Positions 652-5,131 of a DNA stretch of 64,000 bases are shown piece by piece. Under the pieces are notes generated by a model. That model was not told where the DNA came from. It was given only the letters and a program-made list of their open reading frames with translations, and searched no databases. The position numbers were made by a program, and so were the translations under genes. The DNA lies in the NCBI GenBank assembly GCA_964568145.1, contig CAZMOZ010000001.1, positions 195,536-259,535 of the forward strand, given 5' to 3'. The first letter of the stretch is position 1. Each line of letters begins with the position of its first letter. The stretch comes from an uncultured Verrucomicrobiota bacterium (GTDB taxonomy: Bacteria > Verrucomicrobiota > Verrucomicrobiia > Limisphaerales > J093).

Positions 652-2040
652 ATGCGATTCCCGTTTGCTTTGTCGGTCAAGATTGCCCGACACATCATCA
701 AGCACAAGCTGCGCAAGACCCCGAAGTTCGCCATGGTCCTGCAGCTCGAGCCGTTGCACACCTGCAACCTGACCTGCACCGGCTGCGGCCGCATCCGCGA
801 ATACTCGACCAGTCTCAAGGACATGGTGCCGCTCGGCCAGTGCCTGGCCGCGGCAGCCGAATGCGACGCGCCGATGGTCAGCATCTGCGGCGGCGAGCCG
901 CTGATCTATCCGAAGATCGAGGAACTCGTGGACGGCCTGCTCCAGCAGGGGCGGATCGTGTACATCTGCACCAACGGCATGTTCATGCGGAAGAAGATGT
1001 GCGATTACCTGGCCGCCATTTACTCGCCGGCGCGGGAATCGCTGCTCGCCGATCTCCTTGCCCAAAACCTGATCACTGCCAAGCAGGCGGAAGCTATCCG
1101 CAAGGGCAGGGCCGACGGCCGGCCGGTGATCCGCCCCGGCCAGTGGTTGTACTGGAACGTCCACGTGGACGGCCTGGAGTACACCCACGACCTGATCGTC
1201 GAGCGCGAAGGAGTGTTCAAGGAATGCGTCGAGGCGATCAAGATGGCCAAGCGGCTGGGCTTCCAGGTGGCCACCAATACCACGGTCTATCGCGAGACCG
1301 ACGTGCAGGAGATCGAGAACATGTTCCGGTTCTTCTCCTGGCTGGGCGTGGACGGGCACACGATCTCGCCCGGCTATGACTACGACGCCGCCAAGAAGGA
1401 CATGGTGAAGCGGCTGGGCAAGCGACCGGAGGATTTCTTCCTCACGCGCCGGATGACGGTGGAGAAGTTCGCCCGCATCCTGGACTGGGGGAAGGCCTTC
1501 ACCATCTTCGGCACGCCGGTGTACCAGGAATTCCTCGCCGGCCGGCGCGACCTGACCTGCACCGCCTGGGCCATCCCCACGTACAACATCAAGGGCTGGA
1601 AGGCGCCGTGCTACCTGATGACCGACGGCCACTACCCCACCTACTGGGAGATGCTCGAGAAGGTGGACTGGGACCGGTACGGCGTGGTCGGGGGCGTGGC
1701 GCGCGACCCGCGCTGCGAAAACTGCATGGTCCACTGCGGCTACGATCCCAGCGGCGCGCTGGGCACCAACTACCAGCCCGGCGACCACTGGAAAAACTTC
1801 CGCTACAACTTCGGCCCGCGGCCGCCCCGCTACCCCGGCGACCCCGACCTGGTCCGGCGCGCCTTCAACGGCTTCTCCGTCGGCCGCGGGCACCTGGCCG
1901 CCGCGCGCGAAGCCCTCAGGGCGGCCAAGGCGGAACCAACCGGCGTTGACGGTCGCCAAGTGCCGCCAACCGGCTCGACCTGCGGAAACGCGGCCGTGGG
2001 GGAAAGCCCGGCGCAGAAGGTCAGCGCGTCCCGGCCCTGA
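652..2040 (+). CDS. hpnH: adenosyl-hopene transferase, hopanoid-associated radical SAM protein HpnH
   Basis: 462-aa ORF starting at ATG 652. The radical-SAM CxxxCxxC lies in LEPLHTCNLTCTGCGRI. The blocks ICGGEPLIYP and YICTNGMF and the C-terminal Cys cluster CENCMVHCGYDPS match my memory of HpnH. Confidence 0.85.
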   Translation: MRFPFALSVKIARHIIKHKLRKTPKFAMVLQLEPLHTCNLTCTGCGRIREYSTSLKDMVPLGQCLAAAAECDAPMVSICGGEPLIYPKIEELVDGLLQQGRIVYICTNGMFMRKKMCDYLAAIYSPARESLLADLLAQNLITAKQAEAIRKGRADGRPVIRPGQWLYWNVHVDGLEYTHDLIVEREGVFKECVEAIKMAKRLGFQVATNTTVYRETDVQEIENMFRFFSWLGVDGHTISPGYDYDAAKKDMVKRLGKRPEDFFLTRRMTVEKFARILDWGKAFTIFGTPVYQEFLAGRRDLTCTAWAIPTYNIKGWKAPCYLMTDGHYPTYWEMLEKVDWDRYGVVGGVARDPRCENCMVHCGYDPSGALGTNYQPGDHWKNFRYNFGPRPPRYPGDPDLVRRAFNGFSVGRGHLAAAREALRAAKAEPTGVDGRQVPPTGSTCGNAAVGESPAQKVSASRP

Positions 2041-2085
2041 CAATCCTGTTCCGATGTTCCGCGCTCTGCACGAGCTCCTTCGGCC

Positions 2086-3132
2086 ATGCTGAAAAAAATC
2101 AGCATCACCAACTTCAAGTCCCTCAAGCGGCTGGAGTTCGAGGCGCGCCGGGTCAACGTTCTGATCGGCGAACCCAACACGGGCAAGTCGAACGTCCTCG
2201 AGGCGCTGGCGGTGTTTTGCGAAGGGGTCTATGCCTCGCCGGAATTCCTGCGCGGGGTCTTGCGCTTTGTGACCCTGGCCGACCTGTTTTACGACCGGGA
2301 ACTGACCGTGACCGTGGAGGTGCGGTTGGACGAGTATCCTTGGACGCTGCGATTTGAAAAAGGCACGTTCAAAATCGAAGCGCCACTAGTGGCTCAAAAT
2401 GGTGCCCCAATTTCGCCATCACGCACTCCACCATCCCTTTCCTTGAATCACTCGGGCAGCTTGGCTTCCCCACCCAAAACGGCTTCTTCAACGCCGGGAC
2501 TGGCAAATCCGCCGTTTTGCAACTCGCTCCAAGCTGTTCATCGGCTTCGCTACTACCGCTACCAATCCTTGCCGAACTTCAGCCGGTCCGAGTACGGGGT
2601 CTTGGAGCCGCCTTACGGCGCCAACCTGGCGGCGGTCTTGACGACCAACAAATCCCTGCGCCGCCTGGTCAGCGACCTGTTTCGGGCGCGCGGTTTTCGC
2701 CTGATCATCAGTCCGGAAAAAAACGAACTGCTGCTGGCCAAGGAGGTCGAGGACCAGCTTTACCAGTTCAGTTACCCCACCATCTCCGAGACCCTGCGGC
2801 GGATTGTTTTTTACATGGCGGTGTTCGAGACCAACCAAGACGCCGTCTTGCTGTTGGACGAGCCCGAGGCGAACACCTTCCCGTTTTACACCACCTACCT
2901 GGCCGAGCGCATCGCCTTGGACGAGTCCAACCAGTTCTTCCTCACCACGCACAACCCGTACGTCCTGAGCTCGCTGGTGGCCAAAACCCCGGCCAAGGAC
3001 CTGGCGGTGTTCGTCACCACGATGCACGACTACCAGACCGTCCTTCACCCGGTGGGCGGAGAGGGCTTGTCCCGGATTTTGGAATACGGCCCGGACGCGT
3101 TTCTGAACCTGGAGCGATTGCTGGCGTCATGA
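2086..3132 (+). CDS. ABC/SMC-type (AAA_15/AAA_21-like) ATPase, OLD/RecF-like N-terminus
   Basis: 348 aa. The N-terminus is MLKKISITNFKSLK, with Walker A GEPNTGKSN, Walker B LLLDEPE and an FFLTTHNP block. There is a Ser/Pro low-complexity insert. Composition is AT-richer than the neighbouring genes. The stop overlaps the next ATG. Confidence 0.85.
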   Translation: MLKKISITNFKSLKRLEFEARRVNVLIGEPNTGKSNVLEALAVFCEGVYASPEFLRGVLRFVTLADLFYDRELTVTVEVRLDEYPWTLRFEKGTFKIEAPLVAQNGAPISPSRTPPSLSLNHSGSLASPPKTASSTPGLANPPFCNSLQAVHRLRYYRYQSLPNFSRSEYGVLEPPYGANLAAVLTTNKSLRRLVSDLFRARGFRLIISPEKNELLLAKEVEDQLYQFSYPTISETLRRIVFYMAVFETNQDAVLLLDEPEANTFPFYTTYLAERIALDESNQFFLTTHNPYVLSSLVAKTPAKDLAVFVTTMHDYQTVLHPVGGEGLSRILEYGPDAFLNLERLLAS

Positions 3133-3599
3133 GGTGGTTCGTGGAATGCAAGCCGGATGAAACCCTGGTGGTGAGTCTGGGGATAAAGGCCCGTTGCGTG
3201 GAACACGCCGCCAGCCGGGACCGTGTGTGCGCGCAACTGCAGCGCCTTGAACGGGTAATCGGGATGATGGATGAGGATCCCCACGCCCATCCTTTGCCCT
3301 ACCTGAGGAGCCTCGAGGTGCTTGCCGACGAACATTCAGTGCGCGTCTTGATGGACCGGCGGCGCAACAATCGGGTAATCCTGCTCTGTCCCCGCCTGGA
3401 ACCTTGGCTGGTGCGGGCCGCGCGGCAGGCCGGGTTGCGGTTGACCGATTTCGGCTTCGAGCATGATGACGGCAAGGGGCTCCACGCGGAGATCAACCAG
3501 CGCCTGGAATCCTTGCGGCGTCTGGTCGGCGCGTTGGTCGCGCGGGAGGAACCCGGCATGATGGCTTTGCGACAGGCTTTGAACGAAAATCCGCCCTGA
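3129..3599 (+). CDS. small Toprim-like protein (DUF4276/DUF4435-like partner of the ATPase)
   Basis: The ATG at 3129 lies in the frame of the 2517..3599 ORF and overlaps the upstream TGA (ATGA). The 156-aa product starts MRWFVECKPDETLVVSLG and carries MMDEDP about 42 residues later, giving a Glu ... DxD Toprim-type signature. The family call is by eye only. Confidence 0.55.
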   Translation: MRWFVECKPDETLVVSLGIKARCVEHAASRDRVCAQLQRLERVIGMMDEDPHAHPLPYLRSLEVLADEHSVRVLMDRRRNNRVILLCPRLEPWLVRAARQAGLRLTDFGFEHDDGKGLHAEINQRLESLRRLVGALVAREEPGMMALRQALNENPP

Positions 3600-3617
3600 C
3601 TTTCCCAGAACCCATAC

Positions 3618-5066
3618 ATGAGCACCCTCTTCCTCTGCCCCCCCAGCTTCGACGGCTTCGACGGCGGCGCCGGCTCGCGCTACCAGGCGCGGCGCGAGAT
3701 CACCAGCTTCTGGTACCCCACCTGGCTGGCCCAGCCCGCCGCGCTCGTGCCCGATTCCCGGCTGCTCGACTGTCCGCCGCACGGCATTGGTCGCGACGAA
3801 TGCCTGCGCACCGCGCAGAACTACGACCACGTCATCATCCACACCAGCACGCCGTCGCTGCGCAACGATTGCAAGGTGGCCGAGGCGATCAAGGCGCAGC
3901 GGCCCGACACCAGGATCGGCTTCGTTGGCGCGCACGCCGCGGTCCTGCCCGCCGAGACGCTCAAGGCCTCGCCGGCCATTGACTGGGTGGGGCGCAAGGA
4001 GTTCGACTTCACCTGCAAGGAAGTCGCCGAGGGCCGCCCGCTCGGCGAGATCGCCGGCCTGAGTTACCGGGGAGCCGACGGCAAAATCCGCCACAACCCC
4101 GAGCGCGAGTTGATCCCGAACATGGACGCCCTGCCATGGGTGGCGGATGTGTACAAGCGCGACCTCCAGATCGAGAAGTATTTTATCGGCTACCTGCTGC
4201 ACCCGTACCTGAGCCTGTACACGGGCCGTGGCTGTCCGGCGCAATGCACCTTCTGCCTCTGGCCCCAGACCATCGGTGGCCACAAGTACCGCGTCCGCTC
4301 GGCGCAAAACGTCGCTGACGAGATGGCGTATATGAAGCAGCTCTTCCCGCAGGTGAAGGAGTTTTTCTTCGACGACGACACCTTCACGGCCAACCTCCCC
4401 CGGGCGCGCGAGATTGCGAAAAAGCTCGCCCCACTGGGCCTGACCTGGAGCTGCAACAGCCGCGCCAACCTGGATTACGACACCATCCAGCAGATGAAGG
4501 ACGGCGGGCTGCGGCTATTTCTGGTCGGCTACGAGTCCGGCAACGAGCAGATCCTAAAGAACATCAAGAAGGGCGTCACCAAGGCGGAAATGCTCCGCTT
4601 CACGAGCGACTGTCACCGGGCGGGCGTGGTGATCCACGGCACGTTCATCCTCGGACTGCCGGTCGAGACGCGTGAGACCATCGAGGAGACGATCCGCTTC
4701 GCGCAGGAGCTCGACGTGTTCTCGATGCAGGTCAGCCTGGCCGCGCCCTACCCCGGCACGGAGCTGTACGAGCAGGCCCGGCTCAACGGCTGGTTCACCA
4801 AGAAGGACAAGACTGACATCGTCCACGACGACGGCTTCCAGGAGTCCTCGCTCGAATATCCGGAGCTGACCAAGGAGGAAATCTTCGAGTCGGTCGAGCG
4901 CTTCTACCACCGCTATTACCTGCGGCCGAAGCCGATCCTGCGCATCATCAAGACCATGCTCGAGGACAAGGACGTGTGCGTGCGGCGGCTGCGCGAGGGC
5001 TACGAGTTCTTCAAGAGCATGGCTCAGCGCCGGAGTGATCTGGCGGCGGAGAAGGCCGCGGCCTGA
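3618..5066 (+). CDS. hpnJ: hopanoid-associated B12-binding radical SAM protein HpnJ
   Basis: 482 aa. The N-terminus MSTLFLCPPSFDGFDGGAGSRYQARREITSFWYPTWLAQPAAL matches my memory of HpnJ. The radical-SAM motif is GRGCPAQCTFCLWP. Confidence 0.8.
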   Translation: MSTLFLCPPSFDGFDGGAGSRYQARREITSFWYPTWLAQPAALVPDSRLLDCPPHGIGRDECLRTAQNYDHVIIHTSTPSLRNDCKVAEAIKAQRPDTRIGFVGAHAAVLPAETLKASPAIDWVGRKEFDFTCKEVAEGRPLGEIAGLSYRGADGKIRHNPERELIPNMDALPWVADVYKRDLQIEKYFIGYLLHPYLSLYTGRGCPAQCTFCLWPQTIGGHKYRVRSAQNVADEMAYMKQLFPQVKEFFFDDDTFTANLPRAREIAKKLAPLGLTWSCNSRANLDYDTIQQMKDGGLRLFLVGYESGNEQILKNIKKGVTKAEMLRFTSDCHRAGVVIHGTFILGLPVETRETIEETIRFAQELDVFSMQVSLAAPYPGTELYEQARLNGWFTKKDKTDIVHDDGFQESSLEYPELTKEEIFESVERFYHRYYLRPKPILRIIKTMLEDKDVCVRRLREGYEFFKSMAQRRSDLAAEKAAA

Positions 5067-5131
5067 CTCCGCTGGGTGGCTTGCGTCGCGAATCCCGGCC
5101 GTCACCCGAGGCAAGACGGGCCCCCGGCCGT

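Follow-up and report, generated by a model that had tools for sequence, protein, structure and literature searches.

Why should an operon for hopanoid biosynthesis carry, between two of its own genes, a gene for an ATPase and a small partner gene that together resemble an immunity or toxin system? The question is raised by a stretch of 64,000 nucleotides (nt) from an uncultured Verrucomicrobiota bacterium (GenBank assembly GCA_964568145.1, contig CAZMOZ010000001.1, positions 195,536 to 259,535 of the forward strand), which we call the window and whose numbering is used for all coordinates given without a locus prefix. In it, a two-gene cassette at positions 2086-3599 lies between hpnH and hpnJ. 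A first-pass annotation had proposed that this cassette is a horizontally acquired, miniaturised immunity or toxin module of the split-OLD type, and that overall idea is partly supported here. We regard the pair as an accessory, self-contained conflict module (defence or addiction) of the kind that joins an ABC ATPase to a small metal-dependent nuclease in a split-OLD-like arrangement, with a probability of roughly 0.6 for this reading. The pair can be present or absent, can be exchanged, and evolves under purifying selection. It plays no part in hopanoid synthesis and is an accessory element rather than a hopanoid gene, because most related hpnH-hpnJ junctions are empty, its base composition is deviant and it is exchanged by recombination. 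A literature search found no paper naming hpnH, hpnJ and Verrucomicrobia together.

The cassette within the hpn operon

The features on which the argument depends are listed below (ORF, open reading frame; aa, amino acids; dS, synonymous divergence). Other loci and proteins are referred to by L and P numbers where they have to be told apart.

652-2040, + strand: hpnH (adenosyl-hopene transferase), upstream flank and left homology arm; TIGR03470 at 1.6e-109, with Radical_SAM and DUF3463
1550-3600, no strand: recombination tract, from sliding nucleotide identity and from dS of the cassette against its flanks
2041-2085, + strand: 45-nt spacer between hpnH (stop at 2040) and the ATPase gene
2086-3132, + strand: ORF1, gene for an ABC-type (Rad50/SMC/OLD-like) ATPase, 348 aa, N-terminus MLKKISITNFKSLK
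2407-2499, + strand: Ser/Pro-rich low-complexity insert PISPSRTPPSLSLNHSGSLASPPKTASSTPG, residues 108-138 of the ATPase
3129-3132, + strand: ATGA overlap of the ORF1 stop and the ORF2 start
3129-3599, + strand: ORF2, partner gene, candidate minimal Toprim-like metal-dependent nuclease, 156 aa, N-terminus MRWFVECKPDETLV
3600-3617, + strand: 18-nt spacer from the partner gene to hpnJ, forming the right edge of the recombined tract
3618-5066, + strand: hpnJ (B12-binding radical SAM protein, hopanoid side-chain), downstream flank and right homology arm; TIGR03471 at 2.6e-229

The ORFs, their motifs, the Ser/Pro insert, the ATGA overlap and the spacers of 45 and 18 nt were all found in the sequence where the first-pass annotation had placed them. 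The flanking genes score well above the cut-offs of their models, HpnH with 365.8 bits against 225 for TIGR03470 and HpnJ with 761.9 bits against 577.6 for TIGR03471. The ATGA overlap implies translational coupling of the two cassette genes, and overlap or direct abutment of the ATPase and partner genes is also seen in L001, L003, L008, L012, L014 and L016. The + strand of the 45-nt spacer (2041-2085) showed neither a promoter-like nor a terminator-like site, and a terminator scan placed the first + strand terminator-like sites only 3' of hpnJ, at 5114 and 5176; the cassette is probably co-transcribed with the hpn operon. A search at the cassette for terminal repeats, promoters or terminators that would mark a mobile element found none, and there is no integrase or tRNA gene. 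Both ORFs are real genes with hundreds of homologues, and the ratio of nonsynonymous to synonymous divergence (dN/dS) of 0.18-0.26 in both indicates that they are functional and maintained by purifying selection.

HpnH of this clade is 460-478 aa long, against 318 positions in the TIGR03470 model, and matches it in two stretches. An internal insert interrupts it at about residues 121-160, and its C-terminal tail, which varies and is about 80-90 aa long, falls within the recombined tract.

The first gene encodes an OLD/Rad50-like ATPase

The ATPase carries a Walker A motif GEPNTGKSN (residues 28-36, nt 2167-2193), a signature-like ISETLRR (nt 2782-2802), a Walker B motif LLLDEPE (residues 255-261, nt 2848-2868) and an H-loop TTHNP (residues 287-291, nt 2944-2958). 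The residues invariant among 58 aligned homologues fall in these elements: K34 in Walker A, S234-E-T in the signature-like stretch, D258-E259 in Walker B, and H289. The protein passes the Pfam gathering thresholds of AAA_15 (61.9 bits against 32.1, 1.1e-16) and AAA_21 (50 bits against 27, 5.8e-13). Its AlphaFold2 model has a mean predicted local distance difference test score (pLDDT) of 90.1, and the top Foldseek match of this model in the PDB is the OLD protein of Thermus scotoductus (6p74, E 6e-13), followed in order by Rad50, the retron-IA ATPase, GajA, SMC heads and PtuA; the Foldseek probability is 1.00 against OLD, Rad50, SMC and GajA. With these AAA_15 and AAA_21 matches and with Thermus OLD at the head of the structural list, the original assignment of gene 1 to the OLD/Gabija/PARIS/AbiL type of ATPase is borne out. 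The best PADLOC matches are AriA, ATPase-Toprim_I-B, AbiLi, the HEC/PDC ATPases and NsnB, most of them spanning only the P-loop N-terminus and a C-terminal stretch.

The Ser/Pro-rich insert sits in a hypervariable loop that tolerates insertions, and it is exactly there that the homologues differ in length, typical ones having about 320 aa against 348 in the window. Across residues 101-150, which hold this loop, pLDDT is 53-83. As judged from motifs, profiles and the predicted structure, the product of gene 1 is an intact OLD/Rad50-like ABC ATPase with a soluble fold and no membrane or lipid-handling domain.

The partner protein and the Toprim question

The conserved stretches of the 156-aa partner are FVECKPDE (nt 3138-3161, with E6, D10 and E11), H26 (nt 3204-3206), MMDEDP (residues 46-51, nt 3264-3281, with D48-E49-D50) and CPRLEPW (nt 3387-3407, with E91 and W93). 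A word-index search retrieved 36 close homologues, and an exhaustive profile search extended the family to 1,137 clusters at 50% identity, 711 of them with E <1e-10 and nearly all 145-165 aa long. Among 141 diverse members E91 is invariant, and E6, C7, D10, H26, D48, E49, D50, P51, P88 and W93 are conserved in at least 90%.

The AlphaFold2 model of the partner (mean pLDDT 95.7, predicted template modelling score 0.88) is ordered as strand β1 (residues 3-5), helix α1, strand β2 (24-26), helix α2, strand β3 (44-48), a short helix, a hairpin (63-76), a further strand (81-86) and helices. The conserved residues stand directly after strands, with the Glu after β1, the DED after β3 and the PRLE-W after the last strand, and others directly after β2; being at strand ends, they occupy the position where a parallel α/β sheet forms its active site. 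The Toprim domain is defined by a Glu in the β1-α1 loop and a DxD after β3 (PMC12065111), and the partner as modelled shows this layout, with E6 after β1, D48-E49-D50 after β3 and an α/β core. A likeness to P2 Old is visible at the level of motifs (LLVEGKTE...VAVDGKGS in P2 Old, FVECKPDE...MMDEDP in the partner; more fully, LLVEGKTETNVLYAL ... IVAVDGKGS against WFVECKPDETLVVSL ... GMMDEDP in the window).

Profile libraries gave a different picture. Pfam returned no family match for the partner or for two consensus sequences, and only singleton noise for the 141 members; PF20469 (Toprim_OLD) and PF14491 were matched by neither the partner, nor the consensus, nor any of the 141 relatives. The window partner itself had no usable match in NCBIfam, PADLOC or PHROGs, and profile searches of the PDB with the partner alignments A1 and A2 gave chance matches only. 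The family as a whole is missing from the four libraries searched, Pfam, PADLOC, NCBIfam and PHROGs. Of the 141 members, 6 matched the PADLOC model mad4 (best E 1.4e-3) and 4 matched AbiLii (best E 3.1e-4), all below threshold; no other PADLOC model was matched more than twice, and the A1 consensus matches mad4 weakly (E 0.011) over residues 22-94, a span that takes in H26, DEDP and PRLE. Both Mad4 (DUF4276) and AbiLii (RloB) belong to the Toprim superfamily and are paired with AAA_15/21 ATPases. RloB proteins have a C-terminal NPcFElW motif, which resembles the CPRLEEW of the partner family. Foldseek matches of the partner model are generic three-layer α/β folds only (CheY, flavodoxin, S-adenosylhomocysteine hydrolase).

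A Toprim-like nature of the partner is therefore probable but unproven, because the layout and the recurrent mad4 and AbiLii matches speak for it, yet Foldseek finds no Toprim structure. The reading of gene 2 as a Toprim protein in the first-pass annotation holds as far as motifs, topology and sub-threshold matches go, and fails to find a counterpart in Pfam, PADLOC, NCBIfam, PHROGs, the PDB or Foldseek.

The hpnH-hpnJ junction is a hotspot with variable cargo

In the close relatives that could be placed, the gene order is hpnH-ATPase-partner-hpnJ, with ATPase identities of 45-95% and partner identities of 36-90%. The cassette occupies this junction, on the same strand and with tight spacing, in at least 14 distinct Verrucomicrobiota lineages (L001/L002, L003/L018, the P0006 contig, L008-L011, L012/L013, L014/L015/L019, L016, L017, L020, L021, L027, L125 and L142). 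Identity to the window proteins is 73-88% for HpnH and 81-93% for HpnJ at these loci, and the other neighbours vary. Two of the arrangements carry additional genes. In L008 (9443-10830) the partner gene is separated from hpnJ by two extra ORFs of 345 and 113 aa, with no convincing Pfam match; the lineage is an abundant one, with its ATPase P0125 on record in 68 blocks of the sequence collection. In one sub-clade (L014:5820-7930, the same as L019, and L046:5902-7950) a heptosyltransferase-like gene (Glyco_transf_9) and a Kdo-hydroxylase-like gene stand between hpnH and the cassette or its relic, and such enzymes of lipopolysaccharide-core type inside a hopanoid operon might reflect a link between lipid A and hopanoids.

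The constancy of position, strand and tight spacing across at least 14 lineages, with no internal terminator and with purifying selection on the cassette, favours a hopanoid-linked accessory function, in which the pair would supply an ATP-driven step or a regulator acting with HpnH or HpnJ and would be kept by its place in the operon. So does the finding that cassettes with ATPase identity of at least 45% and a readable context all lie at hpnH-hpnJ, except one in Chthoniobacterales. What tells against such a function is the state of the same junction in equally close relatives. A scan with HpnJ gave 80 metagenomic loci, 39 of which have an HpnJ identity of 77-88% together with hpnH. In 31 of the 39, hpnH is directly adjacent to hpnJ, a possibility that the first-pass annotation had raised, and the spacer of at most 126 nt (at most 59 nt in 27 of them) leaves no room for a gene. 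The occupied junctions are as follows.

L125 (plus L142, with hpnH off the contig): this cassette
L124:3217-3687: HicA and HicB; tract GC 0.467; Pfam scores around the gathering thresholds
L156:652-879: HicB-like gene alone; Pfam scores around the gathering thresholds
L127:2018-4221: 140-aa ORF and 592-aa P-loop protein; 2.2-kb insert, GC 0.405
L107 and L133: small membrane ORF

The 592-aa protein of L127 has weak AAA_22, NACHT, AAA_16 and nSTAND3 matches and may be a STAND-type NTPase. The longer junction of L119 reflects an hpnH that is apparently split and not separated from hpnJ by cargo, and L145 holds a possible degraded 3' remnant of the cassette, which is not significant.

Two loci retain scars. 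In L046 (8016-8297) only the C-terminal 93 residues of the partner are kept, directly upstream of hpnJ, and there is no ATPase. In L105 (5909-5994) an 86-nt spacer consists of 45 nt followed by ATG-CTC-GAT-AAG-GTA-CAT-ATC-AAG-AAT-TTC; it encodes MLDKVHIKNF, which is identical in 9 of 10 positions to the N-terminus of ATPase P0095, and its leader of 45 nt is as long as that in the window. The match is short, and the L105 spacer is likely rather than certain to be the remains of an ATPase start. The scars at L046 and L105 show secondary loss of the cassette, and a neighbour-joining tree of HpnJ places the cassette-bearing loci in at least six positions among empty ones.

The hpnH-hpnJ junction is an insertion hotspot with variable cargo. 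A hopanoid-linked function is made very improbable by these observations: most junctions of equal relatedness do without the cassette, in L046 and L105 it has been deleted or truncated with hpnH and hpnJ left intact, unrelated cargo (HicAB, the STAND-like NTPase) uses the same site, homologous pairs occur in archaea and bacteria that have no hpn genes nearby, and the predicted ATPase is a soluble protein of Rad50/OLD type with no domain for membranes or lipids. The first-pass annotation had taken conservation in the hopanoid loci of many relatives with native composition as a pointer to such a role. The cassette does recur in many lineages, yet with a non-native composition; most relatives lack it, and in others toxin-antitoxin or NTPase genes take its place.

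Exchange of cassette alleles by recombination

The cassette does not share the history of its flanks. Spearman coefficients of pairwise identities against those of HpnJ are 0.59 for HpnH, 0.14 for the ATPase and 0.00 for the partner. L001 and L003 are 96% identical in HpnJ and only 67% in the ATPase and 59% in the partner, whereas the window and L001 have 93% identity in HpnJ, 95% in the ATPase and 90% in the partner. Sliding nucleotide identity between the window and L001 is mostly 0.85-0.98 over about 1550-3600, with its low points, of 0.81-0.83, at 3213-3362 and around the hpnH stop, and mostly 0.83-0.90 in the flanks, so that the last 450 nt or so of hpnH (from about 1550) belong to a tract unusually similar to L001. 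Over the same tract the identity of L001 to L003 drops from 0.90-0.95 to 0.3-0.87. Synonymous divergence gives the same contrast: between the window and L001, dS is 0.145 and 0.27 in the cassette and 0.43-0.47 in the flanks, and between L001 and L003 it is 1.3-1.6 in the cassette and 0.36 in the flanks. The identity tract and the contrast in dS together indicate that cassette alleles have been replaced by homologous recombination through hpnH and hpnJ. The two cassette genes also disagree with each other (ATPase and partner identities of 68% and 45% for L012 against L014, and of 56% and 69% for L014 against L020), which suggests shuffling between them by recombination.

Base composition indicates that the cassette has been in place for a long time. 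Its GC content of 0.604 is the lowest of all 1514-nt stretches in the window (mean 0.677, standard deviation 0.020), and the hand counts of 46, 28 and 35 G+C by which the first-pass annotation had judged it to be richer in AT than its neighbours were exact. GC content at third codon positions (GC3) is 0.785 in the ATPase gene and 0.764 in the partner gene, against 0.909 in each of hpnH and hpnJ and a mean of 0.853 (standard deviation 0.044) for window genes in their true frame. In every lineage examined (the window and L001-L016) the GC3 of the cassette lies 0.1-0.3 below that of the flanking hpn genes, and across these lineages it follows the overall GC of the host, with values for the two genes of 0.79 and 0.76 at a host GC of 0.68, 0.66 and 0.73 at 0.65, and 0.46 and 0.49 at 0.56. 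As the cassette tracks host GC yet stays below its flanks, the composition fits long residence with a persistent offset and not one recent import. The offset may come from weak codon selection or weak expression, from selection for poor codons or from repeated influx, causes that the composition does not separate.

Long residence with exchange of alleles was preferred over a single recent horizontal acquisition, which was rejected on the grounds of GC3 tracking, tree disagreement, breakpoints and dS. Of the horizontal acquisition first proposed, the accessory status, the deviant composition and the exchange stand; a one-off recent event does not, since the cassette clade sits at the exact same site across lineages whose HpnJ proteins are only about 80% identical.

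Distribution beyond the hopanoid operon

More distant pairs, with ATPase identities of 31-40%, are scattered over many phyla, and none is near hpn genes. Their bacterial carriers include Bacteroidota, Acidobacteriota, Chloroflexota, Planctomycetota and Nitrospirota, and their archaeal carriers Methanophagales, Methanoperedens, Bathyarchaeia, Thermococcaceae and several Asgard lineages. The partner family is common in Chloroflexota, Bacteroidota, Verrucomicrobiota, ANME/Methanophagales, Bathyarchaeia and Asgard archaea. An ATPase gene lies immediately upstream of the partner gene in at least 62 of 80 genome loci; in 8 of the 80 the partner-family gene has no recognisable ATPase gene upstream and is often truncated or split. 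Orphan or decaying partner copies were noted in L033, L072, L087, L089, L090, L093, L095 and L096.

Outside Verrucomicrobiota, the 108 nearest neighbours of the pair are diverse housekeeping genes (tRNA synthetases, TrpA, NAD kinase, three DinB, three Lhr and two MutL among them), and a location in defence islands in these phyla was rejected on this account. The DinB polymerases, Lhr helicases and MutL proteins raise the possibility that the pair acts on host DNA, as an optional maintenance or repair pair in which a RecF/RecR-like or SbcCD-like ATPase works with a Toprim protein or nuclease. It gains from a profile match of the ATPase to RecF in the PDB (2.2e-4), from the RecF and RecN models of NCBIfam at its N-terminus, from the structural matches to Rad50 and SMC heads, and from L005, where recN and nadK adjoin the pair. 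However, genes for DinB, Lhr and MutL make up less than 10% of the 108 neighbours, the remainder being unrelated housekeeping genes, the RecF and RecN matches are limited to the P-loop N-terminus, and a patchy distribution, carriage by a provirus, allele swaps and frequent loss are unlike repair genes. We consider a repair role quite unlikely.

The provirus in question is Geoglobus ahangari pleomorphic virus 1 (BK065157.1; L097:5020-7174), an archaeal pleolipovirus, in which the pair is encoded as gp15 and gp16 and is flanked by two winged helix-turn-helix regulators; a RelE/ParE toxin gene lies at a distance of 2.5 kb. In the literature this virus was found only in a taxonomy summary by the ICTV. 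The single plasmid match to the ATPase is a truncated gene in Parabacteroides.

Defence, addiction and a proposed mechanism

With repair and hopanoid roles less likely, the main rival to a split-OLD-like conflict module is a purely selfish, toxin-antitoxin-like addiction module, in which one protein would be toxic and the other would neutralise it, and which would persist by lodging in a useful operon and by post-segregational killing with no benefit against phages. Several features suit it: the module has two overlapping genes and stands alone amid housekeeping genes, the same junction carries HicAB in other lineages, the provirus copy is near a RelE toxin gene, the Pfam text for AAA_21 reads 'putative AbiEii toxin, Type IV TA system' (TA, toxin-antitoxin), and the small gene occurs as an orphan or in truncated form without the ATPase in the 8 of 80 loci noted above. 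Yet clean losses are frequent, as the 31 empty sites and the scars attest, so that addiction is weak at best; an ATPase of 320-350 aa in which the catalytic residues are all invariant exceeds what a simple antitoxin needs; and the characterised relatives of this architecture all act in defence. The distinction from abortive-infection defence is, moreover, partly semantic. Taken together, pure addiction appears unlikely, though less so than the two roles discussed before it.

A number of results weigh against the conflict-module reading. No statistically significant link ties the partner to any Toprim family: the best Foldseek E-values of its model are 0.1 (PDB) and 0.07 (BFVD), with no Toprim structure, and hhalign of the family profile against P2 Old and YbjD gave a probability of 0.1%, which is uninformative since these were single sequences. 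Among the 108 neighbours outside Verrucomicrobiota, genes for restriction, CRISPR, transposases or integrases are not enriched. The partner does not occur in 72,556 plasmids and was not found in IMG/VR, where patterns derived from A1 gave 30 matches with none confirmed, and of 50,697 phage records a single one holds the pair. The host of the Geoglobus provirus is the one cultured carrier, and the sole carrier found that is not a metagenome-assembled genome. Finally, defence genes turn over fast, and it is unusual for them to stay long within one operon.

A conflict module of the proposed kind could work as follows. The ATPase of about 39 kDa would form a complex with the partner of about 17 kDa made by translational coupling, and would keep it inactive until a trigger, such as a protein or nucleic acid of a phage or mobile element, alters its ATP-bound state. 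The partner would then cut DNA or RNA at an acidic metal site formed by E6/D10, D48/D50 and E91 at the C-terminal ends of parallel strands, a placement shared with Toprim domains, and the cutting would halt either the invader or the cell that it has infected, as defence or abortive infection. The module would have been captured once at hpnH-hpnJ of a Verrucomicrobiota lineage. Since capture it has been kept by purifying selection, repeatedly lost, and swapped between relatives through the hpnH and hpnJ flanks.

A bolder extension of this reading is that the partner founds an uncatalogued, cross-domain family of minimal Toprim-like effectors, that with its ATPase of about 320 aa it makes up the smallest known split immune system of OLD type, in effect a fifth class, and that the Verrucomicrobiota copy is a defence locus inside a lipid-biosynthesis operon whose alleles are traded by way of the flanking radical-SAM genes. 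We put this forward tentatively and with less than even confidence.

If the pair is a working ATPase-controlled nuclease, it adds a compact defence or abortive-infection family of about 56 kDa in total, found chiefly in archaea and in uncultured bacteria from soil, peat and sediment. Many candidate pairs of an ATPase and an effector, of this same general type, have already been listed. Because its effector is missed by PADLOC 2.0, Pfam and NCBIfam, it would go uncounted in defence surveys of these groups. The small size would also make it a convenient minimal model for the gating of a Toprim-type nuclease by an ABC ATPase. At the hpnH-hpnJ junction, a natural insertion hotspot within a biosynthetic operon, gain, loss, scars and the replacement of alleles can be seen at a single site. 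A practical point for annotation is that the cassette genes should not be read as hopanoid genes merely from their position among hpn genes.

Other features of the window

A small ORF lies directly 5' of hpnH in all relatives that have this operon (390-644 on the + strand of the window, L001:3319-3522, L012:6342-6527 and L046:4177-4500). It has a lipoprotein-like signal (…LNTGC or …LSGCGG), then a conserved VNA..SVSPASFFLPGL motif, and is without family assignment. On the - strand, 16208-44146 holds a run of very large genes (1143-1410 aa) that includes two FG-GAP/ASPIC-UnbV proteins, one PA14/Ig-like protein and one TPR protein. Elsewhere the window has SelA, NADH dehydrogenase subunits and an agmatine-deiminase-like gene, and the context as a whole is ordinary chromosome with no defence island.

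Comparison with known systems

The logic of the pair fits that of OLD, Gabija GajA, PARIS AriA/AriB, AbiL and MADS Mad3/Mad4. With OLD (P2 Old and the Thermus scotoductus (Ts) and Bp OLD proteins, classes 1-2) and GajA it shares an ABC ATPase of the AAA_15/21 type, Ts OLD and GajA being among its top structural matches, and with P2 Old the partner shares a pattern hhVE-x3-[DE] followed by DxD (compare VEGKTE...VDG). However, OLD and GajA are single polypeptides of 500-600 aa with a fused Toprim_OLD domain (PF20469), whereas the cassette has these functions split and its ATPase, at only 320-350 aa, has no long dimerisation or coiled-coil insert. The partner matches neither PF20469 nor DUF4435, which sets the cassette apart from OLD-family classes 1-4.

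PARIS is similar in having a split architecture with the ATPase gene first and the nuclease gene second, and its AriA model is the best PADLOC match of the ATPase (6.6e-19), though a partial one (residues 1-46, and 216-295 for a second model). AriA is a protein of 55 kDa with insertion sequences IS1 and IS2, and AriB, of 35 kDa, belongs to DUF4435; the cassette proteins of 39 and 17 kDa are smaller, as had been surmised, and the partner matches neither DUF4435 nor AriB. In the published mechanism of PARIS a scaffold formed by the ATPase sets free and activates a tRNA-cleaving Toprim effector, and by analogy this is a plausible template for the cassette. AbiL (AbiLi with AbiLii/RloB) and MADS (Mad3 with Mad4) likewise combine an ABC ATPase with a separate small Toprim-superfamily protein. 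The ATPase matches the AbiLi model at 2e-15, again partially, and the window partner has no AbiLii match. Against the NCBIfam MADS3 model the ATPase scores 35.9 bits where the cut-off is 420, the window partner has no mad4 match, and MADS is a multi-gene, methylation-associated system, whereas no methyltransferase or other MADS gene adjoins the cassette. The cassette is not a member of PARIS or MADS and is probably not one of AbiL: the ATPase matches are partial, and the window partner matches neither AriB, DUF4435 nor AbiLii. Nor does it belong to the hopanoid gene set, most related junctions being empty and homologous pairs elsewhere having no hpnH or hpnJ nearby.

In genomic setting, the closest parallel is with the integration hotspots for defence and toxin-antitoxin genes in core genomes, where variable cargo between conserved core genes is exchanged by flanking homology. 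The hpnH-hpnJ junction is similar, being either empty or filled with the cassette, HicAB or a STAND-like NTPase, and having breakpoints inside or next to the flanking genes. It differs in that its surroundings are a biosynthetic operon and its spacers measure a few tens of nucleotides, in having no integrase, tRNA gene or terminal repeats, and in the dominance of one family of cargo.

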